Below, piece after piece: positions 2,591 to 47,238 of a stretch of DNA of 64,000 bases. The notes beneath the pieces are model-generated. The model saw nothing but the letters and a program-made list of their open reading frames with translations. It did not search any database and was not told the origin of the DNA. Location of the stretch: NCBI GenBank assembly GCA_964460795.1, contig CAYWRU010000001.1:19116-83115 (forward strand), in the 5' to 3' direction. Every line of letters begins with the position of its first letter. Position 1 is the first letter of the stretch. Both the position numbers and the translations under genes were made by a program. This stretch comes from an uncultured bacterium. Lineage in GTDB: Bacteria; Omnitrophota; Omnitrophia; Omnitrophales; Aquincolibacteriaceae.

Positions 2591-2869
2591 CTAACCTCTG
2601 CTTCCTTCGCAACACGATTCGTTAATTCGTCCGCAATCCTTGCATTGCAGTTTGGCTCGAATATCTACCAGTTCGCCGCCGCATGCAAGGCACTTAGTGA
2701 CCGCGCGTTCACAAAGTTGTTCAACCAAGTAGCCGTCATGGCGGCGCTGTTCTTCAACCGGATACGGCAATAAGCAGCCGACAGTCTGATAGGCGAAGAA
2801 TTCAAGCATTACCTCCGGTGTCGGTACGTACTTAATTGGCTCACCAAACTCGTCAAGAATATCAGCCAT
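2591..2869 (-). CDS. small zinc-ribbon protein (92 aa)
   Basis: Start moved to the ATG at 2869, giving a TAATG overlap with the RNAP stop. Cysteine pairs CLACGG...CKDCG. The track's longer N-terminus runs into the RNAP gene. Confidence 0.55.
   Translation of the reverse strand: MADILDEFGEPIKYVPTPEVMLEFFAYQTVGCLLPYPVEEQRRHDGYLVEQLCERAVTKCLACGGELVDIRAKLQCKDCGRINESCCEGSRG
2697..2712 (-). repeat. palindromic element copy (intragenic, 1 mismatch)
   Basis: The plus strand reads gtgaccgcgcgttcac. Lies inside the zinc-ribbon gene and encodes CERAVT. Confidence 0.55.
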
Positions 2870-5800
2870 TACTTCTCCATAATCACAACTTTGTCGCGCA
2901 CGTCGATGTCGCCTCGCTGCCATGCATTCCACACGTCTTGCGGATTGCGGAACACACGCGGGCGACGCTCGCTCTTGCCGGCAGTGGCTGCGTAAAGTCC
3001 GCCCACGTATTCCTGGGTAGGAGCGTGAACGGGAGACTTCATGTCCGACGGGCTCAACAGGTTTCGACTAGGCAGCATTCGATCAATCGCCTCTTTACGC
3101 GCTCGATCATCCACAGGAACGTGGAACTGCATAGCGTCGCCGTCGAAGTCGGCACCAAAGCCTTTCGTCACCAACGGGCTAACGCGCAGCGTTGCGCCCT
3201 TAGTTAGTTTAGGGAAGAAGGCCATGATACCGAAACGGTGAAGTACGGGCGCCCGGTTAAGCAGCACAGGCCGTTCCAGCATTTCAGCTTGCATGGCTTC
3301 CCGCGCTAGTTCCGTCTGGTCTTTTACGTGCCGGGCCGCTTCAACCAGCGGCATTCCGCGGCGAGCTAAGTGCCGGATGATAAAGTGCTTGTAGAGATCC
3401 CAGGCTTTTTCCTCAGGAAGTCCCACTTCATCCATGTCTAGGTTCGGGTCGGGCGTAATGGTTGCTCGTCCAACCAAGTCCACCGTCGAACTAATGAGTC
3501 GGCGCTGGACCGTACCAAGCTTTGGAGACGATCCGAAGATATGTCGCAGCAGGCCGCGGACGTTCTTTTCAACAAGCTTAGGATGCGTCGGATCACCGAG
3601 GCCCGTAACCGCTTTGAACGTGTCGTATACGGCCAAGCGCTCATCACCGACATCATCAATCTGCGTCGACAGTTCCCGCAGATTCTTGTTTGCATCGATC
3701 AGTTCCTTGTATAGGTAGTTTGGATCACTTACCAGCGGCAAGCCGGTATCGGACATGGCGCTGATGGGCCGGAAGCGAGGCGGCAGAACAGGCACGCGAT
3801 TAACGAACCAATCCTTCGGGTGAATGCCGAGAGCTTGCGCGGACTTGAGATAACCGAGTTTGCGGATGGCGTGGTCACGTGCCGTCTTGCGCCCGCCGTG
3901 AATCTCGGCTCTGGCTGTAGCAATCTCTTTGGTGATGTTCATCTTGGACAAAGCCTGGCGAATGCCGCTCGGCCCGCTAGAGCCGTCAGGCAGCTTCTCG
4001 CGGCCGGCCAGGATATCCAGGAACTTCTTTTCGGTAAGGTTGAGCATACGGCGAATAGGCTCTTCCATTACCGGGTTCGGCATAGGCTCGTGCAGCTTTA
4101 CAGCGGCCCAGCGATTGCCGTCGTGCCCGCCTGTTAGCGATGGGTCGAACAAGCCGCCCTTTACCGGCTCCATGCCTTTCTCAAGGCGGACGGTATCGCC
4201 GCTGTTGATATTACGGTCGCCGGCAAGCTCATCGATGTCGCTGTCCGTCATAGCCATAACGTGCAGCTTATTGCCTTCCGGTACTACGTTAATGCCGGCT
4301 GCTTTAAGCTCGTTCACGAACTTGTTGTAGATGAGCGGAATCTGCGGCTTCGGCGGCGTTACGCCCTTCATGAACGCAAGCCAGTAGTCCTCGTTACGCT
4401 GGCCGCGAATAGCGCCGGCATCACGCATGACTTCCAAGGCGCCGTGCGACAGCAGGGCGTTCTGGTCCATTAGCGACATACGCTTGGAACCGGTCTCGCC
4501 GCCCTTGGCCGGTTCGCCGGCCATTGTGTAGCCGCCGGTACCGCGACCCTGAGCTTTGGACTCAGATGTGTGGTGCAGCTTCATGAAGAAGCGGTGACCG
4601 GTAAGTACGGCAGGAATAGCGCGGCCAGTCTCCGGATCGGTAACCGTATCCGTGTCGCTAAGGCCGTGCATCTTCAGCTGATCTTGGACGTGAGCCATCA
4701 CGTCGCTGATCTTGTCGAAGTCCAGGATCTTTTGCGGCTGACCGGTTTGCTTGGCGATCTTGCCCAACGCGGCCTCGGCTACCTGCCCCACGTTAACGCG
4801 GGAGATAAGACCGAGCGGGTTGAGCAGAATATCGAACGCATTGCCCTGGCTGTCCTTCGGCATCTGATCATCCGGAACGATATCGGCAATAACGCCCTTA
4901 TCGCCGTAGCGGCCGGAAAGCTTATCGCCCACCTGCATCTGCGCAATGGACTTAACGAGAACGGTGTGGCCGTTCTTTGTCTTCACTACGTCGGTTACTA
5001 GACCGGGAGCATGATGCTTCCATAGTTCGGTGGCGTCCTCGAATCCGGCTTGGCCTTTGCGGTGGACTTTGTTCTGAGCCGACTCGCGCTCCTTGGCCGA
5101 AAGAATGAGCGGATCGCCGAAGTTAACGACCGTGCCAGGTTTAATAACGCCGTCATCGTCAAGATTCGCAATTGTGTTACGGTCGAACTTAGATGGGAAC
5201 AAGCCTAGATACGTGCGCTTGCCGGTCTTATGCTTGTCCGTCAGTTCGATTCCGTGTTGATACATGTGCTCGCTGGACAGCTTCTTGGCCGCAGCTTCGC
5301 TGATAACGAACGCGTCTTCGTAGTTCGCACCGCGGAAAGGCAGATAGCCGGCGTACAGGTTCTTGCCCAGTGCCGCCGTACCGGTCTTGTCCGTGTAGTT
5401 GCTGTACGCCAACAGCTGGCCTGGTTGAACCTGGTCGCCGATGTTTACGGCAGCGGTATTGTGCACGTACGTTTTACGGTTGTACGGGAAATGGTTGTAC
5501 AGCTGCTTGGTGGACGTAGTGCCGTCTGGATGACTGATCGTCATCGAGTCGTTGTCCATAGCCGTCACCCAGCCCGGCTTATCGGCGCGAATAGCGCCCA
5601 TCTGCCGGCCGTGTAGCTCTTCGAACGATTCGTTCTTACCGGGAGCCAATCCCTGCACTAGCGGAGCTTCTGCATCCACAAGCGGCAAAGCCTGTGTGAG
5701 CATGCGGCTACCCATCGCTACGCGCTGACCTTTAACCGCGCTCTTAAGCGGGATGAGGTTTGCGAGCGGACTGAAGGCATTCTCAAAGTGGGGCAGCGTG

Positions 5801-7332
5801 AGTTCGACCTGGTCCCGCGGCATATATTTGATCTTGCCGCCATGCATCGCAACAACACGTTTACCAGGACGGTCAAGTTCCCCTGGAAACGCGACAGCCA
5901 TGTCGGTAACGTCCTGCGGCGACTTCCATTCGGTGGCTCCGGTTTTGACATTAACGAATGGCGAGTAAATGCGACCGTCGCGACCTTTACGCGTTTGGTT
6001 AGCCAGAAAGATATCAACGCCCGCGCGAAGAGATTCCGGCGTGCGAATGGGGTCCATGAACCCGAGGTGCGATGGCTGGACGGATCGAGCTTCATCAGGC
6101 ACGGCTTCAAGCGATGGAATGCCGCCTTCGCCAAGCCGCGTGATACGGGTGAGCTTGTCAAAAATGTCAGCCGGGTTAATTTCTTCGAGACTCTGTCCCA
6201 GCCCCGAACCCAGCAAGGCTGCTTCCAATTGCGACGTAAGGGCTCCAGGTTGTACGTGCTTAAGGGTCCGCGAGAGGCCGGACTTCCATAGCAGGTTGTG
6301 TCGGATACGGCCCGAATCTTTGGTAAACCGCTCACTAAATAGATCCTCTGGTCCCATGACTACTTGGTTAGCGAGGTGATCGCGGTCGTCCGCTTCTTCC
6401 TCGCCGCGAGATACTTTAAGCAGCTTCTGTGTCAGTCGAAGAAGTGCGGCTTTATCGAGTTTGGCGAACGGCTGCCCCAGTGTTCGTTGTGTGATCTCTG
6501 GATCAAGTTCCATTTCATCCATAGCTGCAAGGAGCTTGGTCCGCTGTGTAGGCTCGTCGTCGGTGTCGGCTCGGCCTTTGGCGAGCTTGTCGTAGAGCTT
6601 ACGCAGTACGATGGGATCATCTTTAAGCATGTTGGAGGCAACAAGCTCAGGACCCCACGCTTCACGTAGTTCTTCGTCCTTTGCGCCCATGATGCGCAGC
6701 AGCGGCATGAGCGGAAGTTTCGCTTGGCCCAGGCGCATGTAGAACTGGCCTTTCGCAGGGTCCAAGAAATAGCGATGGCTAGGTCCCTTACCAGGCATAA
6801 TGTTCGCATGTGCTTCGATCTCTCCGTTGTCTTTGATACGGGTAAATACGCCGGGACGCAGACGCATCTGGTTGCCGAGCGTATATTCGTTACCGTTGTG
6901 GATGAATGTACCGCGGTCTGTAAGATACGGCACTCGGGCCACTGTGGACTTGATCTCGTCCAGTACGTTGCCGGTGGCGTTGTCCTTCAGTCGCCATGTG
7001 CCGCGCAAGCGCCGCCCAAGCGTCTTGCCTTCGAGAATGGCGCGCTTCTGGTCGGCAATGCTGTAATCGTCGGGATCGGCATAGTCCACGTCTGCAAGCT
7101 CCAACGTATGGAGCTTGTTCGTGGCCGGCTTCATAGTGCGAGCGGCTTCCAGGACGTTATCGAAGATAAGCTGCCGGCTTTTGGCCGCATCGCCGAATTC
7201 GCGATAGTCCGAACCGTCCGAAGCCGGCATGGGCTTCATAGGCGGCGCAGCCGGTTGCTGCGGCTTTACGACGGAAGCGGGCGTGGAAGCCATCGGGCGG
7301 GACAGCACAGAGAAGGGTTTATCTGCTGGCAC
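2869..7332 (-). CDS. multisubunit-type RNA polymerase, fused beta-like plus beta' N-terminal-half polypeptide (1487 aa)
   Basis: GTG start. Beta motifs appear in order: LTDRGTFIHNGNEYTL..RLRPGVF, TRLGEGGIP..VQPSHLGFMDPIRTPES, GQRVAMGSRMLTQALPL, GANYEDAFVIS, GDKLSGRYGDKGVI..LLNPLGLISRVNVGQV, FMKLHHTSESKAQGRGTGGY..GEPAKGG. Beta' motifs follow: GGLFDP, VLPPRFRP, NRAPVLHRFGIMAFFP, and GADFDGDAMQFHVP at about 3130-3160. Confidence 0.9.
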   Translation of the reverse strand: MPADKPFSVLSRPMASTPASVVKPQQPAAPPMKPMPASDGSDYREFGDAAKSRQLIFDNVLEAARTMKPATNKLHTLELADVDYADPDDYSIADQKRAILEGKTLGRRLRGTWRLKDNATGNVLDEIKSTVARVPYLTDRGTFIHNGNEYTLGNQMRLRPGVFTRIKDNGEIEAHANIMPGKGPSHRYFLDPAKGQFYMRLGQAKLPLMPLLRIMGAKDEELREAWGPELVASNMLKDDPIVLRKLYDKLAKGRADTDDEPTQRTKLLAAMDEMELDPEITQRTLGQPFAKLDKAALLRLTQKLLKVSRGEEEADDRDHLANQVVMGPEDLFSERFTKDSGRIRHNLLWKSGLSRTLKHVQPGALTSQLEAALLGSGLGQSLEEINPADIFDKLTRITRLGEGGIPSLEAVPDEARSVQPSHLGFMDPIRTPESLRAGVDIFLANQTRKGRDGRIYSPFVNVKTGATEWKSPQDVTDMAVAFPGELDRPGKRVVAMHGGKIKYMPRDQVELTLPHFENAFSPLANLIPLKSAVKGQRVAMGSRMLTQALPLVDAEAPLVQGLAPGKNESFEELHGRQMGAIRADKPGWVTAMDNDSMTISHPDGTTSTKQLYNHFPYNRKTYVHNTAAVNIGDQVQPGQLLAYSNYTDKTGTAALGKNLYAGYLPFRGANYEDAFVISEAAAKKLSSEHMYQHGIELTDKHKTGKRTYLGLFPSKFDRNTIANLDDDGVIKPGTVVNFGDPLILSAKERESAQNKVHRKGQAGFEDATELWKHHAPGLVTDVVKTKNGHTVLVKSIAQMQVGDKLSGRYGDKGVIADIVPDDQMPKDSQGNAFDILLNPLGLISRVNVGQVAEAALGKIAKQTGQPQKILDFDKISDVMAHVQDQLKMHGLSDTDTVTDPETGRAIPAVLTGHRFFMKLHHTSESKAQGRGTGGYTMAGEPAKGGETGSKRMSLMDQNALLSHGALEVMRDAGAIRGQRNEDYWLAFMKGVTPPKPQIPLIYNKFVNELKAAGINVVPEGNKLHVMAMTDSDIDELAGDRNINSGDTVRLEKGMEPVKGGLFDPSLTGGHDGNRWAAVKLHEPMPNPVMEEPIRRMLNLTEKKFLDILAGREKLPDGSSGPSGIRQALSKMNITKEIATARAEIHGGRKTARDHAIRKLGYLKSAQALGIHPKDWFVNRVPVLPPRFRPISAMSDTGLPLVSDPNYLYKELIDANKNLRELSTQIDDVGDERLAVYDTFKAVTGLGDPTHPKLVEKNVRGLLRHIFGSSPKLGTVQRRLISSTVDLVGRATITPDPNLDMDEVGLPEEKAWDLYKHFIIRHLARRGMPLVEAARHVKDQTELAREAMQAEMLERPVLLNRAPVLHRFGIMAFFPKLTKGATLRVSPLVTKGFGADFDGDAMQFHVPVDDRARKEAIDRMLPSRNLLSPSDMKSPVHAPTQEYVGGLYAATAGKSERRPRVFRNPQDVWNAWQRGDIDVRDKVVIMEK

Positions 7333-9649: not shown

Positions 9650-11122
9650 TTAGCTGCCGTGAGTGCGGCTGGCGATGCTGTCACGCAAGCTCTGCGTTTG
9701 CTGCATGTACTCGTCATATGCCGAGTCCAGTTTACCGCGCAGGCCGCTAAGGTTGACTTGGCCTGCGCCGGCTAAAGCAGGGCGGCTGCCGTGCGAGCCT
9801 ACCATGGAACCAAGACCGGCTCCAAGAATGTCGCCGAGACCAAGTCGACTGAACAGCCTACGGCCTGCTAAGGTCTTGGCGCCTGCCACGCCGAGCAAGC
9901 TGCCGGCCAATCCGCTTAGACCTTCGCTTGTAGATGTTTCACCGCGCGTTAGGCCTTCAATAGGTTTGACGCCTCCGTGGATAAACCCACCGATACCGGG
10001 AACCGCGGCCAGTAGATCTTTGCGATCAAATGATTCCTTTTCCTGCGAAACCGGTTCAGCGTACAGCGGCGACGGTTGCGACTCGTACATCTTACGACGA
10101 CGGGCGCTTTGCGCACGGCGCAGAAGTTCCGACTCTTGACGCTTCTTGAAGTGGTTGTAAACCAGCGCAGCCGTAATGGCTCCGCTTCCAAGGGCACCTA
10201 CGCCGTATGCACCTGTAAGAGCACCGGCGGCGTTTGTGTACGTAGTGGGATCGATGGCCGCGGACGCTAGTTCCGAAAAGCCGGCTGTTTTCTCAAGGGC
10301 GCAGAATTGGTCGTATAGGCGATCAAGCTCTACAGCCGCCGACGAATCGGAAGCAGTTTTGCCTTTGTTCTTGTACTCGTTCATCAGCGCCTGTTCGTAT
10401 TCCGTCTGAGCGCTCTCTAGCTCGCCTTCAAGCTCGGCCTTGCGCCGGGAGTCCAGCAGCTTGTCCGCCACCTTCCAGCCGCCGTAGAGGCCTCCCAGGC
10501 CCGCTGCAAGGCCCGCGGGGATAGCCCAGGGGATTCCGGCCGGGGTCACAGCCTGATCGCCCTGCAGGAAGCTCCCAGGGCCTAATAGGCCACCTTCCTT
10601 ATTCAGCCCGCCCACGAGCGCGCCGATACCGCCTCCGGCGCCAGCGCCGTATTGGGCACCTTCTACACCGAAGCGCTTAATTGCCTGATTGCGCATCTGG
10701 CGAATCGCTTTGTCGCCAAAGATGCCCTTGAAGAAATTCATAACGGATGGCCGGGTGCTGTATAGTCCTCGAAGCAATCCAGCCATTCCGCCCAAGCCTG
10801 CGCCCACGCCAAGGCCGACTGCGCCGCCTGTGAGTGTGCGGCCAATAAGTCCTTGGTCCTCAGCCGTCTTGGCCGGAATCGGAATTTGCATGGAGACAGG
10901 GGCGGATGCCGGCCGCTTTTGCTTCTTAATGTTTCGGCGGTAAAGGCCGTGAAGAGCCGATACGCCGCGAGCCGCAGCCCCTACTCCGGCGAGGCCAAGG
11001 CCGGCAAGGCCGAGGCGACGAAGCGTATTCATTTGCATCTGGCGAGCCGTAGCCAATTGAACGGCATCTTCCAGGGAACCAACCTCAATGGCGGCGGATT
11101 TGAGTAGCGACATGCAAAACAT
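9650..11122 (-). CDS. glycine-zipper-rich membrane-associated protein (490 aa)
   Basis: Repeated small-xxx-small hydrophobic segments (GLAGLGLAGVGAAARG, GGAVGLGVGAGLGGMAGLL, GAGAGGGIGALVGG, AGLAAGLGGLYGG) and a charged coiled-coil middle. Confidence 0.6.
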   Translation of the reverse strand: MFCMSLLKSAAIEVGSLEDAVQLATARQMQMNTLRRLGLAGLGLAGVGAAARGVSALHGLYRRNIKKQKRPASAPVSMQIPIPAKTAEDQGLIGRTLTGGAVGLGVGAGLGGMAGLLRGLYSTRPSVMNFFKGIFGDKAIRQMRNQAIKRFGVEGAQYGAGAGGGIGALVGGLNKEGGLLGPGSFLQGDQAVTPAGIPWAIPAGLAAGLGGLYGGWKVADKLLDSRRKAELEGELESAQTEYEQALMNEYKNKGKTASDSSAAVELDRLYDQFCALEKTAGFSELASAAIDPTTYTNAAGALTGAYGVGALGSGAITAALVYNHFKKRQESELLRRAQSARRRKMYESQPSPLYAEPVSQEKESFDRKDLLAAVPGIGGFIHGGVKPIEGLTRGETSTSEGLSGLAGSLLGVAGAKTLAGRRLFSRLGLGDILGAGLGSMVGSHGSRPALAGAGQVNLSGLRGKLDSAYDEYMQQTQSLRDSIASRTHGS

Positions 11123-11204
11123 CCTTGTTTATCGGGACCGGTGCTCGTGACAGCCTAGCAAATATGAGACGGCTAGGAGTAGAGCAGCTACGGCGTAGTA
11201 CAAG

Positions 11205-11315
11205 CTAGAGGTTATCACTGCTGTGATGTTTCTTAAAAACGTACGCTGCTACCAGGGCGATCTGGATAAGCAGTCCAAGTCCAAGCCATAAGAACGGTGT
11301 AAGCGGACCGATCAT
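11205..11315 (-). CDS. small membrane peptide (36 aa)
   Basis: Found manually, below the track cut-off. The ATG is 1 nt after the upstream stop. Sequence MIGPLTPFLWLGLGLLIQIALVAAYVFKKHH. Confidence 0.35.
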   Translation of the reverse strand: MIGPLTPFLWLGLGLLIQIALVAAYVFKKHHSSDNL

Positions 11316-11316
11316 G

Positions 11317-11682
11317 TTAGTCTCCGTTGGGGCCATTTAGCCGGCTTTGGGGGATTTCCATGTGCGGTTCGAGCCATTCGATGTAGACCACCCAGTTCTT
11401 CTTTTCGCGTATAAACTGTCGCTCTACGAACAAGATCTTGTACCACTTGTTGGCGGCACGATCCAGGATTTGCTTGTATACGGCGCGCTGTTCCGGCACT
11501 GATAAGTCGAACGTATCAACCTGAGCATCGTTAACGCGCTCTGCAAGCGCCTCGTACTGGTCTTCCTTGAGGACTACTGCCTTAGGCCCGCGGAACGGTG
11601 CTCCGTCAGTCTTAGCCCGACCCCAAAAGATCTTATCTTGACCCTCACCGCCAATGTCTAGGTATTTGAGGAACGAACCCAT
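11317..11682 (-). CDS. hypothetical protein (121 aa)
   Basis: Track ORF, 1-nt gap to the upstream gene. No motif recognised. Confidence 0.55.
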   Translation of the reverse strand: MGSFLKYLDIGGEGQDKIFWGRAKTDGAPFRGPKAVVLKEDQYEALAERVNDAQVDTFDLSVPEQRAVYKQILDRAANKWYKILFVERQFIREKKNWVVYIEWLEPHMEIPQSRLNGPNGD

Positions 11683-11683
11683 A

Positions 11684-12112
11684 TTAAATCAATGGACGAC
11701 CACGACGCACATTCTGGTTCTTGGAAGCATGCAAAGACGCCGCCATACGAGCACGTTGAGCCAGACGCTTGTGTTCGTCAATTAGCTCCTTGAGTTTTGT
11801 TTCTTCGACGTCTTCATCGTTAACGTCGGTGAGAGCTGCGGCGCCATAACCAAGCCCGGCGCCTGCGGCAATCGGAAGACCAAGAGCCAAGCCCGTGCCT
11901 AGCCCAGTGGTCGTGTGGTAGAGGTTGTCCAGGATGCCGGCGCGCTTGGTGGCCGTAGCGTCCCATAGTGTGCTTGCCGTAGCGCCCTTAACGGCATTAG
12001 TAAGTTCAGCCTGGGCTTGTTTTACGGCCGCAAGAGTTTCGGCCATGTCAAAGCCCTTATCGGCGCAGCCGGCCAAAAAGGCGGCTTTGAAAGTCTCACG
12101 TCGAGTCAGCAT
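11684..12112 (-). CDS. glycine-zipper protein (142 aa)
   Basis: Contains GLGTGLALGLPIAAGAGLGYGAAAL flanked by helical charged regions. Confidence 0.55.
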   Translation of the reverse strand: MLTRRETFKAAFLAGCADKGFDMAETLAAVKQAQAELTNAVKGATASTLWDATATKRAGILDNLYHTTTGLGTGLALGLPIAAGAGLGYGAAALTDVNDEDVEETKLKELIDEHKRLAQRARMAASLHASKNQNVRRGRPLI

Positions 12113-12133
12113 CCTTGCTCTCCTTCTATCGGC

Positions 12134-12538
12134 CTAAGCCGGAAATTCACTCATCCGCTTAGTAGAAGCTTTTGGAATGTTCATGCCAACGCTGATCTGC
12201 TGCGGCAGCCGGCGGATACGGTCCTTAATCATGCTCGGATCGTCGTAAGAACCCTGCTCTCGGGCCTGCCGGATCACTGCGGGAGCTTTCTCGCAGAATT
12301 CCAGGTCCGATTCCAGATATGGCAGGAATTTGTATTCCGGCGTGTTTCTTTTACTATTCCCAAGACGCAGGCGTTTGCCGTTGAAGTCGGAGATAGCCGC
12401 CACACGCTCGGCAGCCACCCGCCAGTGCATGGCCTCGTAGTAGCCGGTCTTTACGTCCTCAACATGCACTAAGCCGTTCTCGGCCCACACTTTGATGTGC
12501 CGCAGGTTCAGTACGTTGTGTTGCCCTAGTATGTACAT
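12134..12538 (-). CDS. hypothetical protein (134 aa)
   Basis: Track ORF. Its start overlaps the upstream stop by 1 nt. Confidence 0.55.
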   Translation of the reverse strand: MYILGQHNVLNLRHIKVWAENGLVHVEDVKTGYYEAMHWRVAAERVAAISDFNGKRLRLGNSKRNTPEYKFLPYLESDLEFCEKAPAVIRQAREQGSYDDPSMIKDRIRRLPQQISVGMNIPKASTKRMSEFPA

Positions 12539-41491: not shown

Positions 41492-42214
41492 TTAGGTTAC
41501 GACTGGTTCAGCGGCTGCAACTGCCGGCTCAGTATTGGCGTCAAAGTCAGCTACAGTCAATTCGCCGGCCAGCAAGTTGAGACTCATATCGCGGTCTACA
41601 TCGTAACCGCGCAAATATCGAGTGAACTGCTGGATCATAAGGCCGGCGGCGATGCCTGACGTATAGATCGTGCTCCGAGCGGTACAAGCGCCTTGCTGCG
41701 CTTGCTCAGGAGCGAACAACGTCTTCGGATAGTACTTGGCGTCAGGATCACTGCTGACGGCCAGAATACGCATGACTTCTCCAAGCATTCGCCCATCGGC
41801 ATAGAAGCGGCTAGCTTTACCGCCGTTCTCCCAGATGGACTGGCGAACCTTGATCGAATCGACGCAGCAGAACATCTGCGGCTTTGAATACTTGCCGCGA
41901 TATACGTCGTCAATTGCCGTGACTTCACATTCGGGATCAATTTCCAGTAATGCCGCTTTCAGAGCTTCGACTTTCTTCATTCCCACATCCGCAAGGCGGT
42001 AGCCTTGGGTAGTTCGGTTGTGGTCTTCGACAGTGTCGAAGTCGATAATCGTCAAACGCCGAACACCCATGGCGACCAACTGAATGGCCACCTGTCGTCC
42101 GATTGCGCCTACGCCGATTACCGCAATGTTAGCCTCTGCCATCTTCGCCGCCGGGACAAAGCCCGACTGGCGAATGAAACGATCAGTAGGCTTAGTCGAC
42201 GAATCCGTCATCAT
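41492..42214 (-). CDS. ThiF/MoeB/E1-like adenylating enzyme (240 aa)
   Basis: RFIRQSGF..ANIAVIGVGAIGRQVAIQLVAMGVRRLTIIDFDTVEDHNRTTQ, i.e. a Rossmann GxGxxG plus the D..N..R of E1-like enzymes. Overlaps the JAB gene by 23 nt. Confidence 0.8.
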   Translation of the reverse strand: MMTDSSTKPTDRFIRQSGFVPAAKMAEANIAVIGVGAIGRQVAIQLVAMGVRRLTIIDFDTVEDHNRTTQGYRLADVGMKKVEALKAALLEIDPECEVTAIDDVYRGKYSKPQMFCCVDSIKVRQSIWENGGKASRFYADGRMLGEVMRILAVSSDPDAKYYPKTLFAPEQAQQGACTARSTIYTSGIAAGLMIQQFTRYLRGYDVDRDMSLNLLAGELTVADFDANTEPAVAAAEPVVT

Positions 42215-43649
42215 GCCCTCCTAGCATGTGCGCCGACGCCATTTGTCCTTCGGACTCTTCGGCAGCGTCGGCTTGTTGATTGTGGTCAGCAATTTCCTGT
42301 ACTGACATCGAGTTGACTTCGGACTCCCAAGCGGCGAGTTCTCGCTCAAGTTCCGCTTCGTCCTCAGCCTCGTCCGGTTGAATGATGGCGTCGATTTCGA
42401 TGTCGGCATTGCGTTTTTGCTCAGCCTCTTCGAAACGCTCCCAATCAGCGTCTGTGATTTCTTCAAGCGGCTTGTCGCCGAAGAACTTGGAAGCACGCTC
42501 GTTTAGACTGATTGTGCGATCATCGTCGTCATCGTCGTCATCTTCCGAATCCGGAACGGTCGGATCGTCCAAATCACCGATGCTGTACATCGATGTGATG
42601 ACGTCTTCCGCCATTTCTTCCCAGCGAAGGAGTTCGCCTTCCTCCCACTCTTCTTGAGTGAGCGTATGTATGTCCTTCGCATTGAGTTCAGCGATGCGAT
42701 CACCGCGAGCAATCCATGCGCCGGACTCTTCTTTCGCCACACGTCGGAGGATGGTCTTCCAGCCGTCCAGCGTGAGGCTGTCCGGACACGAATTGGCGAT
42801 GTAATCGTCGGCGGCAGCGGCCTTGGCATCTTCTTCGTCTTTGCGTAGACGGCGAGCTTCTTCCGCGTCCTCCGCGCTTACTTGATCCCGATACGTCGTA
42901 ATAGGAGGTAAGCCGCGTGTTTGATAAACGGAAGGAAGCCGGTGCCCTGGGATTCCGTTGACATCAAGGGCTTCTCCGTCATCGGAGAAGATTTGTCCTT
43001 GGCGAACGGCACTGCGACTGATGTGAGGATGCGCGACCCCTTTCGAGGGCGCCGGCGTCCAAACCTCCCGCGAGCAGCAGTCTTCGTACTCAGCAATCCA
43101 TTCGTCATAGTTGACGCCCGGAAATGCGCAATCGGTGGTAACTTCCACCGGCAGCGTCATGGCGTAACCGGGGCCAGCCGTGTACTTAAGCCGGCAATAT
43201 GTATCACCGCCCTTAGCGATGATGAACATGACGGACCAAGCTGGAGCACCAAAGCATTTGGCGAACGTAGCTTCGTCAACTCCGGACGGCGATGGCGAAG
43301 AACCAGGGTGAGTATGGATCCATACTCGGAAGCACTGATCCATCGTGTAGCCAAGTTCGGCCATATCTTCGACGTACGCATTTACTGCGTCTTCGTCGAA
43401 TTCGACGGTAACCGAACTGCACACCTGTTTGATCATCATCACATCTTCGATGAACAGCGGGTTGTCCGCTGCGCCGACACCGAAGAAGCCTACCTCGGTA
43501 TCGCCGAGATCGCGAATGAATTTGAGCTTAGCCCAGGCGTATGGGCTAAAGACGATCTTGTTTCGAAGCTTCGGGGGCTCCGGTACGAAATACTTCGCGA
43601 CCTTCATGGGAGTAACTGATTTGCCCTTCGACGCTACGTTAGGACTCAT
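42192..43649 (-). CDS. JAB/MPN+ (JAMM) metalloprotease with long acidic C-terminal extension
   Basis: Exact JAMM signature: DTE90VGFF...H150-T-H-PGSSPSP-S160-GV-D163 (nt 43275-43316). I chose the ATG at 43649, an 11-nt overlap with the E2-like stop. The track start is 43763. Confidence 0.75.
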   Translation of the reverse strand: MSPNVASKGKSVTPMKVAKYFVPEPPKLRNKIVFSPYAWAKLKFIRDLGDTEVGFFGVGAADNPLFIEDVMMIKQVCSSVTVEFDEDAVNAYVEDMAELGYTMDQCFRVWIHTHPGSSPSPSGVDEATFAKCFGAPAWSVMFIIAKGGDTYCRLKYTAGPGYAMTLPVEVTTDCAFPGVNYDEWIAEYEDCCSREVWTPAPSKGVAHPHISRSAVRQGQIFSDDGEALDVNGIPGHRLPSVYQTRGLPPITTYRDQVSAEDAEEARRLRKDEEDAKAAAADDYIANSCPDSLTLDGWKTILRRVAKEESGAWIARGDRIAELNAKDIHTLTQEEWEEGELLRWEEMAEDVITSMYSIGDLDDPTVPDSEDDDDDDDDRTISLNERASKFFGDKPLEEITDADWERFEEAEQKRNADIEIDAIIQPDEAEDEAELERELAAWESEVNSMSVQEIADHNQQADAAEESEGQMASAHMLGGHDDGFVD

Positions 43650-45078
43650 CGTTGTACTCTCGATGGTTGTATTGGAAGTATGGGGTGTGGCCGTAGGCTG
43701 TTCCGCGCGCTTCTGCGACAGACTCTTGTCTTTGTTCTTCCGACGTTTGTTCTTCCGTCCCATTGGCTTCCTTTGCCTCTTCTGCTTCGTCTACTTCAGC
43801 AATTGCTTCCGCGATTACGGATTCAATTTTGATAGGGGACGACGGAATTGTTAGAGTTTCAGTGGATTCTTGATTCAACGCCTCGGCTTCAGCGTCTTCG
43901 GCAGCTTTCGCTTTGGCTTCAATTTCTTCGTCGATCTGCTCCATGCACCGTTCGCACATGGCCTTGCCGGCAAACTGCTTATGCTCGGGCGCATCTTCCG
44001 GGCATGTCCAGCCGTGCTGATTGGTTTCAGCTAGACAGGCTGTGCAGCATGTCCTGTCGCACTTTGCGCATTTACCAACACAGTCGTCGGAATTCGAGCA
44101 AGTCGACTCAGAGCAAGCGTCGCACGTAGTGCGGCAGTTAGAGCAAAGCGAATTACTGCACCAAACGCAGGTGGCCGTGCAGCCGGCGCACGCGATGCGT
44201 TCATGGCATCCTTGGCACGAGTAATCTTCGCCGTACGTAGGATCGCCACAGTCATCACAATATGGCGCATTATCATCGTCCTCGTCGTCATCGCTTTCAT
44301 CCCAGACGTCCATTTCGTGGTACGCTGCGCCTGGGTTGTACACGCGAAGAATAGCCAACCACATGGTTAGCGCGTCTACGATAAGGCCTTCGTCCAAGGC
44401 GGTAGAGATAACTCCACCATGGTCGCCTTCGCATAGAACGCCGCCAGACATGTGCGGATGATAGTAACCGTGACCGGACCGAGAGTCTTCACTCATTGGC
44501 GTCACGTTCATAGGCCGCGACCGGCTATACTCCCACAGGTTCATGCGGATGCAGAACTGGCCCATATTCATCTTGGCCGGCTTGCCGTTCAGATCCGTGT
44601 AATCAAGCGTAATCTCTTCAGTGATCACCTCGATGTACGTTTTGGCTGCCGTATTACCGCGATAGAATTTGCATGACACGAACGGTACATCGCGCATGTC
44701 GCGCAGCTTTTTGAGATCGTGGAGGATGCCGTTAACATCGGACGAAGCATCAACGAAGCTGTTTCGCCGTTCTAACTCGGAAGCAATGATAACGATCTCC
44801 GCATGCGCATCGCGCAGAGCGTTAACAAGCTTCTGGTTTTCGGCTTTCGCCGCTTCGGCGTCCCCTTTTGACTGCGCCTTTTCCAACGCTGCTGTTAAAG
44901 TTACGACCGTGTCCCAGCGGCTTTCCATCATGCGCCAGTTAATAGGCGTTAGTGGGCTGCTTTTCTGGGCGCCGTACTTATATGTCTCACGTTCCGGAAT
45001 TTGCTCGGCGATTTTCTTGGCCATGAGAAGAAGCTGCTTATCGCTAAGCGTTACTTCTTCAAAGCCGGCTAAAGTCAA
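43639..45078 (-). CDS. E2 (UBC)-like protein fused to CxxC-rich zinc module (479 aa)
   Basis: TTG start with AGGAG upstream. UBC-like core around aa 115-255: FCIRMNLWEY..PMNV..YHPHMSGGVLC216EG..LIVDALTMWLAILRVYNP. Nine CxxC pairs in aa 274-378. Acidic tail. Confidence 0.55.
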   Translation of the reverse strand: MTLAGFEEVTLSDKQLLLMAKKIAEQIPERETYKYGAQKSSPLTPINWRMMESRWDTVVTLTAALEKAQSKGDAEAAKAENQKLVNALRDAHAEIVIIASELERRNSFVDASSDVNGILHDLKKLRDMRDVPFVSCKFYRGNTAAKTYIEVITEEITLDYTDLNGKPAKMNMGQFCIRMNLWEYSRSRPMNVTPMSEDSRSGHGYYHPHMSGGVLCEGDHGGVISTALDEGLIVDALTMWLAILRVYNPGAAYHEMDVWDESDDDEDDDNAPYCDDCGDPTYGEDYSCQGCHERIACAGCTATCVWCSNSLCSNCRTTCDACSESTCSNSDDCVGKCAKCDRTCCTACLAETNQHGWTCPEDAPEHKQFAGKAMCERCMEQIDEEIEAKAKAAEDAEAEALNQESTETLTIPSSPIKIESVIAEAIAEVDEAEEAKEANGTEEQTSEEQRQESVAEARGTAYGHTPYFQYNHREYNDES

Positions 45079-45088
45079 GGTTCTCTCC

Positions 45089-45123
45089 TAGCTAAAAAAG
45101 ACGGGGCGGCTTTCGCCGCCCCG
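45089..45123 (-). terminator. rho-independent terminator with TAGCTA box between Ubl and E2-like genes
   Basis: Minus strand: CGGGGCGGC-gaaa-GCCGCCCCG, then TCTTTTTTAGCTAGGAG. Confidence 0.7.
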
Positions 45124-45162
45124 CCCGTGATTCAACCTAGGCCCGGCTGCTCCGCAGCGGGG

Positions 45163-45420
45163 TTAGGCTACGAGGGCGCCCTCGATCTTTTGCGGCGTCA
45201 CAGTGACGGAGTCGCCGTCCTTCAACGTAGCGCCAGCCGAGGTGCTCTCTCGGTTGACCTTCACGTTGAAACGCTCAAAAGCGACCGAGGCCGACACGCC
45301 GAGCTTCGTCTCCAGAAGCTGGCCTACCGTATAGTTCGCAGGCACTTCGATGTTATCGACACCGCCGCCCGTGTTGCTGTTCAAAAACCGAATCTTGACC
45401 GTTTCGAAACCGCTACCCAT
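45163..45420 (-). CDS. ubiquitin-like beta-grasp protein (ThiS/MoaD-like, 85 aa)
   Basis: VKIRFL..NIEVPANYTVGQLLETKL..FNVKVNRE..ATLKDGDSVTVTPQKIEG-ALVA. The spacing matches the beta-grasp pattern, with a Gly near the C-terminus followed by a 4-residue tail. Confidence 0.6.
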   Translation of the reverse strand: MGSGFETVKIRFLNSNTGGGVDNIEVPANYTVGQLLETKLGVSASVAFERFNVKVNRESTSAGATLKDGDSVTVTPQKIEGALVA

Positions 45421-45491: not shown

Positions 45492-46151
45492 TTAGAAGCC
45501 CGTTAAACTGACTTTCTTTGGCCGTTGCGCTTTGCGCGTGCTTGGGCCTTTTACCCTATTAGCACGACACCGATACGAACCCGTGCTGTCAAATTCCTCA
45601 GTGAGCCAGCCTTGTCGCCGCAGGTTGTACAACTCTTGTACGGCGATATGTGTTTCAACGGCTTTGCGCTCAAACGCGGAATCGACCTCTGAATTTATCG
45701 GCAGCTTATTACGCTTCTGCAGCCAGGTAACCAACTCCGGCACGTTAGCCTTGTGTCCTACCGCATCGGCGATTTCAGACAAAGTGTGCCATTCGTAATC
45801 CGATCGGAGATACTCCCGAACGGCTTCAGTGGTTATACCGTAATCGCTTTTGGTCTCGCGCTCCTTCACTGGAAGAAACTTTAACGTCAGCGTATTTCCG
45901 GATCCGCGCACTTCTACGCTATGTCCTTTGATAAGCTTTTTAACGTAGTCTTGCGCGAATAATGTGCGACCCATTCGTTGCTTTTGATCGCCTGTCAGCT
46001 TACTACCGTCAATGTTTCGCTTTGGCTCATAATGCCGATAAGCGTGCATCGCTTCTTCTGCCGACATAATCTTAGCGACACGTATAACCGCGTCGCTTTG
46101 ACCGATCCAGTCGTTGCCGATTGCTTCCCTAACTAGTAACTGGTGAGGCAT
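45492..46151 (-). CDS. hypothetical protein, possible winged-helix C-terminus (219 aa)
   Basis: WHTLSEIADAVGH..VTWLQKR and ELYNLRRQGWL. Weak call. Confidence 0.5.
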   Translation of the reverse strand: MPHQLLVREAIGNDWIGQSDAVIRVAKIMSAEEAMHAYRHYEPKRNIDGSKLTGDQKQRMGRTLFAQDYVKKLIKGHSVEVRGSGNTLTLKFLPVKERETKSDYGITTEAVREYLRSDYEWHTLSEIADAVGHKANVPELVTWLQKRNKLPINSEVDSAFERKAVETHIAVQELYNLRRQGWLTEEFDSTGSYRCRANRVKGPSTRKAQRPKKVSLTGF

Positions 46152-47238
46152 TTTTGTTCATCAGTCGTTCGCATGTTGCATGCACTCGACGTATGGCGCT
46201 ATCCATGGTGTTAATTTGCGCCATGTTCATTCCACCCATAGAGCCATACGAGGACATTCGGCTTTCGTACTTGTCGTTCAACTTATCAAACATGCGACAA
46301 GCTTTCATGAACTCGTCAAATGCGATTTCGTCTCGCGATCGTTTCTTTTTGGTTCGGCTTTCAGCTAACGAGCCGGGTTCCTCGTTGGCGTACTTTTCCG
46401 ACAGCGCTTCAGCCACACTAAGCCGAACTTGGACTTCGGCATGCTTGGACACTTCTTTGATCATGGCGTCCAATTGCCGGCCGTTCAAACTGCCTGTCAC
46501 GACGGCGTACGCTAATGCATAGAGCGTTTCATGCTCGTCGCGGAAGCAATACAGGCTGGCTAGCATCTCGTCGGTAAACACCGCGCTATCAGCCTTAATC
46601 ACTTCCATTGCTACCAGCTTGGCGTGAATAGCGTCGGCATGCAGCGAGGCGTAGAGGTCTTCTACTTTTACGCCGCTGGCGTCGGCCGCGTCTGTTGCCG
46701 GCACTTTGTTTTCACAAAGTTCTTTAGCGAACTGCAGGCACTCGTTGTACGTCGGCGGCATACCGTGGGTGCGGTTGGCGTCGCGGGCGAAACGCTTCAA
46801 GAGATCCGGAGTATACGTGCCTTCTTCAAGAACGTACGCTTCGATGTATTCAAACTTAGCCTTGATAGCAGCGGTAATGCGCTGGTTGCCGGACAAAGTC
46901 GAATACATGCCATTGCCTAGCCGTACCAGTACAGGGCGCGGGAATCGATCGTAATTCGGTTTCGCCATGTCGACGAAATACCGAGTTACGGCATCTTTTA
47001 CGATGGTTCCGTCGGGTCGAGGATTGATACCGAGGCTATGTTCCCGGTCAACAGATGTGAGTGGAACGATTTCAATTTTGACTGGAAATCGATATTTAGC
47101 CAGAAGCGACTCGGCCATTAAACATGGCCCCCAGTGCGACTGCACCGAACACTGGGTTTCAAGCGGCAACGTCCGTGTTTGATGAATTTGCGTTGCAGGA
47201 GTTGCGGCAACCAGCCGATCTCCAAGGGTGACGGACAT
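46129..47238 (-). CDS. ParB/Srx N-terminal-domain-like protein (369 aa)
   Basis: SD GAGGAAAA. VKIEIVPLTSVD...PVLVRLGNGMYSTLSGNQRITAAIKA resembles the ParB-type GxxR..A box. Confidence 0.5.
   Translation of the reverse strand: MSVTLGDRLVAATPATQIHQTRTLPLETQCSVQSHWGPCLMAESLLAKYRFPVKIEIVPLTSVDREHSLGINPRPDGTIVKDAVTRYFVDMAKPNYDRFPRPVLVRLGNGMYSTLSGNQRITAAIKAKFEYIEAYVLEEGTYTPDLLKRFARDANRTHGMPPTYNECLQFAKELCENKVPATDAADASGVKVEDLYASLHADAIHAKLVAMEVIKADSAVFTDEMLASLYCFRDEHETLYALAYAVVTGSLNGRQLDAMIKEVSKHAEVQVRLSVAEALSEKYANEEPGSLAESRTKKKRSRDEIAFDEFMKACRMFDKLNDKYESRMSSYGSMGGMNMAQINTMDSAIRRVHATCERLMNKNASPVTS

Follow-up and report, generated by a model that had tools for sequence, protein, structure and literature searches.

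A predicted E2-like protein with a conserved multi-zinc module in a four-gene ubiquitin-like conjugation cassette of a virus-like genome

The locus and its genes

The stretch analysed here, called the window below, comprises 64,000 nucleotides (nt) of contig CAYWRU010000001.1 from an uncultured Omnitrophota bacterium (assembly GCA_964460795.1, positions 19,116 to 83,115 of the forward strand). Four of its genes lie head to tail on one strand and encode the precursor of a ubiquitin-like protein (Ubl), a protein of 479 amino acids (aa) in which a putative E2 core is joined to a cysteine-rich module, a JAB peptidase and a minimal E1. The second of these genes is the subject of this report. Its open reading frame (ORF) has a TTG start with AGGAG 7–8 nt upstream, and a public gene call, on a 174.7-kb contig of a public collection, gives the identical 479-aa product.

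An earlier note on this DNA, made from the letters alone, had described a helical N-terminal region of about 110 aa, an E2-like core, an acidic linker, nine CxxC pairs at nt 43945–44259 and an acidic tail. All nine pairs are exactly there (aa 274–378), and the helical region, linker and tail are present as well. An AlphaFold2 (AF2) model of the protein was built with 73 sequences and had a mean per-residue confidence score (pLDDT) of 80; a single-sequence prediction (pLDDT 43) was of no use. The gene and the parts of its product are as follows.

43639–45078 (−): whole ORF, predicted E2-like protein with zinc module, 479 aa, stop included in the coordinates
44749–45078 (−): N-terminal helical domain, aa 1–110 (AF2 with multiple sequence alignment; family alignment)
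44293–44745 (−): E2-like alpha/beta core, aa 112–262 (AF2, hhalign)
44452–44460 (−): HPH motif, aa 207–209, putative counterpart of E2 HPN (family counts; hhalign to HPN)
44431–44433 (−): codon of Cys216, the predicted thioester-forming cysteine, invariant and aligned to Cys85 of UBE2D2
44266–44301 (−): acidic linker, aa 260–271 (DESDDDEDDDNA), an insertion typical of the virus-borne clade
43945–44259 (−): predicted zinc module, aa 274–378, ten Cys pairs (sequence, alignments, profile matches)
43642–43944 (−): E/A-rich tail, aa 379–479 (sequence, AF2)

The N-terminal domain, which is common to the whole family in alignments, forms a long antiparallel hairpin of helices 13–29, 31–39, 45–70 and 74–109 in the alignment-based model, with pLDDT mostly above 84, and its only Foldseek matches were coiled-coil hairpins. 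The linker contains the stretch SDDDEDDDN. In the tail, a helix (376–403) is followed by predicted disorder.

The other elements of the cassette are listed below.

45163–45420 (−): Ubl precursor, 85 aa, ending ...VTPQKIEG↓ALVA, with weak ThiS/MoaD matches
42192–43649 (−): JAB/JAMM peptidase, 485 aa, with the HTHPGSSPSPSGVD motif; start taken from the public gene call
41492–42214 (−): minimal ThiF/MoeB-type E1, 240 aa, a single adenylation domain with a conserved Cys in GACTARST (Pfam ThiF, E = 5e-23)
45099–45126 (−): strong GC-rich hairpin (12 bp) with a T-run after it, in the gap from the Ubl to the E2 gene; resembles a terminator or attenuator, fold z-score −4.9

The window Ubl is beta-grasp-like, with Gly81 as its predicted mature C-terminus. 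The JAB protein has an intact HxH-x7-S-xx-D motif, and its reading frame, starting at 43649, shares 11 nt with the end of the E2 gene. It carries a C-terminal extension (42192–42990, −) of about 260 aa that is acidic, Trp-rich and matched no family; JAB proteins of virus-like contigs are 440–485 aa long (L004, 12522–13964; L077, 11784–13106), as against about 195–240 aa in planctomycete chromosomes. Hairpins of different sequence occupy the same position between Ubl and E2 genes in most planctomycete loci (L007–L073), and an uninterrupted stem of at least 8 bp was found in 31 of 58 such intergenic regions and in 4 of 58 coding controls. The hairpin may terminate or stabilize a separate, more abundant Ubl transcript.

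The protein family and its cassette across genomes

In a full HMMER search with aa 1–385 as query, 946 of 1.84 billion cluster representatives matched at E ≤ 1e-3, of which 343 reached E ≤ 1e-10. Full-length relatives with 42–45% identity accounted for two of the matches, and the others were proteins of about 350 aa whose alignments spanned both the HPH region and the Cys module. The fusion to which the earlier note drew attention is not special to this gene; the architecture is standard for a family of at least 946 clusters, and its conservation across these matches makes the fusion of the E2-like core to the predicted zinc module the defining architecture of a large unannotated family. H207, P208, H209, C216 and W259 were invariant or at least 90% conserved in family alignments. 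The same held for 20 cysteines of the module in 55–73 homologues of 22–40% identity, so that the Cys array is not a product of chance; with conservation this strict, the proposed fusion withstood the survey of homologues. Ten CxxC pairs were present in 166 of 220 family proteins.

The family is large, unannotated and undescribed. All named members are entered as 'hypothetical protein' of Planctomycetota, none with a Pfam domain on record, and searches of Pfam, NCBIfam, PADLOC and PHROGs assigned no family to the 479-aa protein. Literature searches, which did not cover a 2011 survey of prokaryotic RING fingers, found no description of it. Word-indexed homologue searches with the full protein or a full-length alignment returned only the query or one relative; a trimmed core alignment recovered homologues where these had failed, and we suspect that the acidic low-complexity tails had swamped the candidate list. 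Scans of IMG/VR and JGI metagenomes for the virus-borne clade, with protein patterns and a degenerate DNA pattern, found nothing. Among unusually built members, one of P0005 (733 aa) and P0122 (783 aa) is an internal tandem duplication of the whole family protein, and the other, judged by eye, seems to have at its N-terminus a region like a trypsin-type serine protease, joined to the E2–zinc part.

The genomic context was surveyed in one genome per species, with partner genes located by tblastn. This gave 69 loci, almost all in Planctomycetota (Phycisphaerae and Planctomycetia), several genomes having two or three copies. The Ubl gene lay directly upstream in 61 loci, and JAB and E1 genes lay downstream in 64 and 56, respectively; missing partners were mostly at contig ends. 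Identity to the planctomycete counterparts was 36% for the window Ubl, 44% for JAB and 48% for E1. In 59 of the 61 loci with a Ubl gene the product ends in ...TP(T/V)KIEG↓A plus 1–12 residues, and the residues past KIEG therefore indicate that the Ubl is made as a precursor.

Genes flanking the cassette were mostly unannotated, and those with Pfam matches were of mobile-element or defence types: serine recombinases, DUF2958, HerA, Wadjet JetD, AbiEii, an M78 peptidase and a methylase. One locus adjoins CRISPR-Cas I-C and an AAA_5/DUF2357 (McrBC-like) gene pair. In genomes of Planctomycetota the family occupies variable regions, or regions of the mobile-element or defence type. No universal fifth gene was found beside the cassette across the loci, only subgroup-specific neighbours. 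In 5 of the 69 loci (L002/L007, 9702–10103, and four others) a DUF6573 gene (133 aa) separates JAB from E1; the window has none. No paper on DUF6573 or on planctomycete Ubl operons turned up in text searches of the literature.

The E2-like core and the zinc module

The core (aa 112–262) runs in the AF2 model from helix 115–126 through six strands (135–194), the HPH loop, Cys216 and helices 218–229 and 233–245 to a YNP motif. This order of helix, strands, loop, Cys and helices fits that of the ubiquitin-conjugating (UBC) fold, in which helix 1 is followed by an antiparallel sheet of four strands, the active-site loop and a crossover helix. When a 35-member core alignment was compared with UBE2D2 by hhalign, HPH fell on HPN, Cys216 on Cys85 and YNP on PNP; against eight eukaryotic E2s, GxFxI also fell on beta3 and PYrV on PPKV (E = 0.0015, probability 16%). 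The score of 25.9 exceeded those of all 200 column-shuffled queries (mean 12.8, standard deviation 2.5, maximum 21.2) and of 199 of 200 shuffled E2 profiles. An HPN-type motif 7–10 residues before the Cys, by which E2s are recognized, is also present: of 218 family members, 217 have HPH and the remaining one has HPN, and in 212 a six-residue spacer separates HPH from Cys.

Several observations weigh against an E2 identity. The hhalign probabilities were only 4–16%, and the E2 sequences used had been entered by hand. Foldseek searches of PDB and BFVD with the whole model, which were dominated by the coiled hairpin, returned no E2, the top PDB matches being coiled coils; no E2 was matched in sequence or profile searches of Pfam, NCBIfam, PADLOC and PDB, and a profile of the core alone matched no PDB sequence. 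The C-terminal helices that canonical E2s possess are also absent from the modelled core. Among the Foldseek matches, the clear ones were all unnamed viral proteins of 474–522 aa (BFVD A0A516KZW4, A0A516LAI7 and A0A516LW79; E = 2.8e-6, 1.1e-5 and 7e-3).

The E2-like core described in the earlier note therefore holds at the level of motif and context, in that HPH-x6-C aligns with the HPN-x7-C of eukaryotic E2s and Ubl, JAB and E1 genes adjoin it in 56–64 of 69 genomes, and finds no echo in the fold search with the whole model. Judging from similarity of motifs and profiles, from the topology of the secondary structure and from the logic of the operon, we regard the E2 assignment as probable, mainly because the motifs are co-linear and the cassette would otherwise be without a carrier.

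The same evidence bears on two other identities for the protein. It could serve as a zinc scaffold or substrate receptor without catalytic activity, with a further metal or structural site formed by HPH and Cys216 and the Ubl handed on directly by the E1. The fold and family searches, with no E2 among their matches, agree with this, as does the plausibility of an HxH and a Cys with neighbouring E/D residues as a metal site, and parts suited to protein binding (coiled hairpin, zinc fingers, acidic tail) dominate the polypeptide. We nevertheless consider a scaffold rather unlikely: the HPH-x6-C spacing and the flanking motifs are co-linear with those of E2s, H209 is Asn in one homologue, giving the canonical HPN, and a cassette with Ubl, E1 and isopeptidase offers no other candidate for the carrier.

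Somewhat less likely again is that the core has a different fold, such as a permuted papain-like or transglutaminase-like one, and works on the Ubl or its conjugates as a cysteine peptidase or ligase. Cys216 is at the N-terminus of helix 218–229 in the model, after a beta-sheet with conserved His residues, an arrangement also found in permuted papain-like enzymes, and here too the fold searches without an E2 are in keeping. In enzymes of these types, however, tens of residues usually separate the catalytic His from the Cys, as against 7–9 in this protein; in addition, no peptidase family was matched in library searches, and the cassette already has a JAB peptidase.

The cysteine module is dense, 22 of the 25 cysteines of the protein lying within 105 residues and three in the other 374. 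The earlier note had counted nine pairs and proposed four or more zinc sites. Besides the nine CxxC pairs there is a tenth, degenerate pair, C327-x5-C333, which aligns with an ordinary CxxC in homologues, and the corrected count of ten pairs implies five Cys4 sites. The Cys spacing is 2-10-2-5-2-3-2-4-2-3-2-4-5-3-2-4-2-26-2 in the window protein and canonically 2-11-2-4-2-3-2-4-2-3-2-4-2-3-2-4-2-5-2 in the family, and natural variants have lost Cys pairs two at a time. Both the spacing and the paired losses fit five Cys4 sites, and the module is predicted from its sequence to bind five zinc ions through its ten Cys pairs.

The first four pairs fit the spacing of a B-box1 finger, of which the consensus is C-x2-C-x7-10-C-x2-C-x4-5-C-x2-C/H-x3-6-H-x2-8-H (PMC4162623); the spacing is 2-10-2-5-2-3-2 in the window and 2-11-2-4-2-3-2 in the family, with Cys replacing two His. 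Profile searches of PDB sequences with the module found cross-brace fingers only (E = 0.002–0.3), with MID1 B-box1 the best (E = 0.0017), then TFIIH p44 (E = 0.005), FYVE (E = 0.005), C1, the cellulose-synthase RING and the TRAF3 and TRIM21 RINGs. Among 73 members scanned, 20 touched the Cys-rich part of Pfam Siva (positions ~116–153), one matched ZZ and two FYVE, all below cut-off, and the Pfam scan gave no B-box or RING match in any member. For Siva (PF05458) the best E-value was 3.8e-4, still short of the gathering threshold (in one example 16.5 as against 26.2 bits, over the Cys-rich part only). In the AF2 model short strand elements precede each Cys knuckle, at pLDDT ~90.

That every match to a zinc-finger family fell below curated thresholds counts against our reading of the module. 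The RING-like character proposed in the earlier note is supported by the spacing of the first four pairs and by weak B-box1, RING-like and FYVE matches, none of which reached curated cut-offs. We predict that the first half of the module is a B-box1/RING-like cross-brace finger. The very high Cys density, a marginal match to PsaC (4Fe-4S, E = 4.3) and a 'metallothionein' entry among the BFVD matches could be taken to mean that the array holds iron–sulfur clusters, or is a redox or metal sensor switching the enzyme, instead of structural zinc fingers, which we judge very improbable in view of a spacing (2-11-2-4-2-3-2-4...) that does not fit the ferredoxin motif CxxCxxCxxxCP and on which the ferredoxin-type reading was rejected, of better matches that are all zinc cross-brace fingers, and of regular knuckle and strand elements modelled at pLDDT >90.

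Proposed function, genomic setting and known systems

On balance we favour the interpretation that the 479-aa protein is the E2-like carrier of a self-contained four-gene Ubl conjugation cassette, with a built-in zinc docking module. The JAB peptidase would trim the Ubl after Gly81 (KIEG↓ALVA), the ThiF-type E1, as a homodimer, would adenylate Gly81, and the Ubl would pass as a thioester to Cys216, which directly follows the invariant HPH loop, before being moved from the E2-like core to target proteins. The zinc module may act as a docking surface for the target, the E1 or both, replacing an E3 or the ubiquitin-fold domain of an E1. Since this E1 has no ubiquitin-fold domain and the cassette no E3 gene, the N-terminal hairpin, the zinc module and the tail are natural candidates for E1 docking and target choice, and we infer such a role for these added domains; the zinc module in particular may act like an E3 or as an adaptor. 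Domain anatomy and conservation of the protein are observed, as are the cassette and its occurrence across genomes, whereas thioester chemistry, zinc binding, the module's role and the targets are predictions. In host genomes the cassette could function in defence or in competition between mobile elements, and in a virus it could serve counter-defence, exclusion or the modification of host proteins.

The C-termini of family members have features of their own. A peptide A-V-(H/Q)-(P/A)-x-x-(L/V)-G-(E/Q)-A-x-V-(P/S)-A is conserved in 84 of 218 members (P0005–P0190), with its Gly exactly six residues from the end in 68 of the 84; shuffled tails gave about three matches. The peptide is loosely like the Ubl end TPTKIEG↓A. 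Virus-clade relatives end in the Gly itself (LRAGIVG, LRAGLTG, EWISYG), and the window protein ends in ...RGTAYG plus 16 aa (43642–43710, −). The tail of the enzyme may be a Ubl-like glycine tail; relatives end either with Gly or with a motif that contains one. The JAB peptidase might cut this tail and the E1 activate it, with the result that the enzyme would become conjugated or tethered itself. A more speculative proposal, which we put forward tentatively, is that the cassette represents an undescribed class of prokaryotic ubiquitination, with E2 and E3 in one polypeptide that combines a UBC-like core with a B-box/Siva-type zinc array, and perhaps such a glycine tail on the enzyme.

The window is probably part of a large phage or virus. 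Nearly all its genes are on one strand, and a DNA ligase, an exonuclease and AAA ATPases with PHROG matches are among them. A 1487-aa ORF (2869–7332, −) matches PHROG RNA polymerase beta subunit families in several separate stretches, which suggests a fused multisubunit-type polymerase as in large phages. The window DNA had no similarity to GenBank phages, and tblastn searches of GenBank phages and PLSDB plasmids found nothing. Over about 23 kb (33900–56800) the window is syntenic with an 82-kb contig (L077), at protein identities of 29–71%; the shared order is exonuclease, AAA, PspA-like, AAA, ParB-like, the Ubl cassette, a cold-shock-domain protein, and glycosyltransferases with an epimerase. 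This synteny indicates that the cassette has been vertically inherited in a large virus-like lineage. Within the cassette the identities were 55% for Ubl, 45% for E2, 46% for JAB and 68% for E1, and outside it 71% for the exonuclease and 64% for an AAA protein, so that E2 and JAB are less conserved than these two. E2 and JAB diverged faster than E1 in these two syntenic genomes (45–46% as against 68%), which could be expected of the target-facing parts of a conflict system. That a virus lineage keeps the complete cassette suggests that Ubl tagging in Planctomycetota is used by viruses as well as by hosts.

Another virus-like contig (L004, 112 kb) has two tandem E2–zinc paralogues of 391 and 422 aa between Ubl and JAB (10001–12457) and a 2-oxoglutarate (2OG)-Fe(II) oxygenase gene after E1. 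Directly upstream of the cassette in the window lie two genes, at 45492–46151 (−) and 46129–47238 (−). They encode a 219-aa protein, of which a homologue with 32% identity stands beside the cassette in another locus (L076), and a 369-aa protein with weak ParB-like PHROG matches. A ParB-like gene in combination with a ThiF-type E1 recalls ParB/ThiF cassettes; membership of the PRTRC (ParB-related, ThiF-related cassette) group was rejected, TIGR03736 scoring 23 bits against a cut-off of 144.75 and the neighbours having no PRTRC matches.

It was demonstrated only recently that prokaryotic Ubl conjugation, in CBASS Cap2, Bil and Bub systems, operates in the manner of the eukaryotic pathway, and the choice of targets in systems without an E3 is a current question. 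A predicted E2 that always comes with a B-box/RING-like multi-zinc module would be a concrete and testable candidate for built-in recognition of the target or the E1, and the family, if correctly read, would add a possible prokaryotic relative of B-box/Siva-type fingers.

With UBC-fold E2s of eukaryotes such as UBE2D2 the core shares an HP(N/H) loop 7–9 residues before the Cys, the beta3 and beta4 motifs and a helix ending in (P/Y)NP, all co-linear, the similarity being weak and at profile level. It differs in having a second His for Asn and an additional strand and helix after the Cys, and in missing the last two helices. The zinc module resembles B-box1/RING-like fingers (MID1 B-box1, TFIIH p44, FYVE, ZZ), its own ligand spacing C-x2-C-x10/11-C-x2-C-x4/5-C-x2-C-x3-C-x2-C fitting the B-box1 consensus. 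B-box1 has reported E3 activity (PMC4162623); in contrast to B-box1, the module here has Cys at all eight ligand positions and goes on with six more pairs with 3–5-residue spacers. The Cys-rich C-terminus of Siva, described as a B-box plus a zinc-finger-like region (PMC3935273), likewise consists of successive CxxC knuckles whose spacers alternate between 4 and 3 residues; outside the Cys region Siva has no similarity to the family.

As a system, the cassette shares with CBASS Cap2 and Bub (6E) a prokaryotic Ubl-type conjugation based on a ThiF-type E1 and JAB peptidases, and the window E1 matches Cap2-type E1–E2 models over their E1 part. CBASS Cap2 and Bub systems have E1–E2, Ubl–E2 or JAB–E1 fusions, and Bub in addition DUF6527 and serine chemistry (PMC11601596), whereas here there are four separate proteins and a predicted E2 with an invariant Cys. 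The system is not CBASS, Bub or PRTRC. The closest parallel is with BilABCD, in which Ubl, E2, JAB peptidase and E1 follow in that order (PMC10557695, PMC11601596): the cassette has the same four roles in the same gene order, and, like Bil, it has no separate E3 gene and occupies variable or defence-type genome regions. PADLOC (E ≤ 1) gave no model match for the E2 or the Ubl, although the presence of Bil models in PADLOC-DB v2.0.0 was not checked. Further differences set the two apart. The Bil E1 is a large three-part protein (PMC11601596), whereas the E1 here is a single ThiF domain of 240 aa (215–232 aa in relatives); BilB is a compact E2, whereas a helical N-terminal domain and a predicted five-zinc module are added here; and the copy in the window lies in a virus-like genome. 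We conclude that the system is most likely a Bil-like but distinct cascade.

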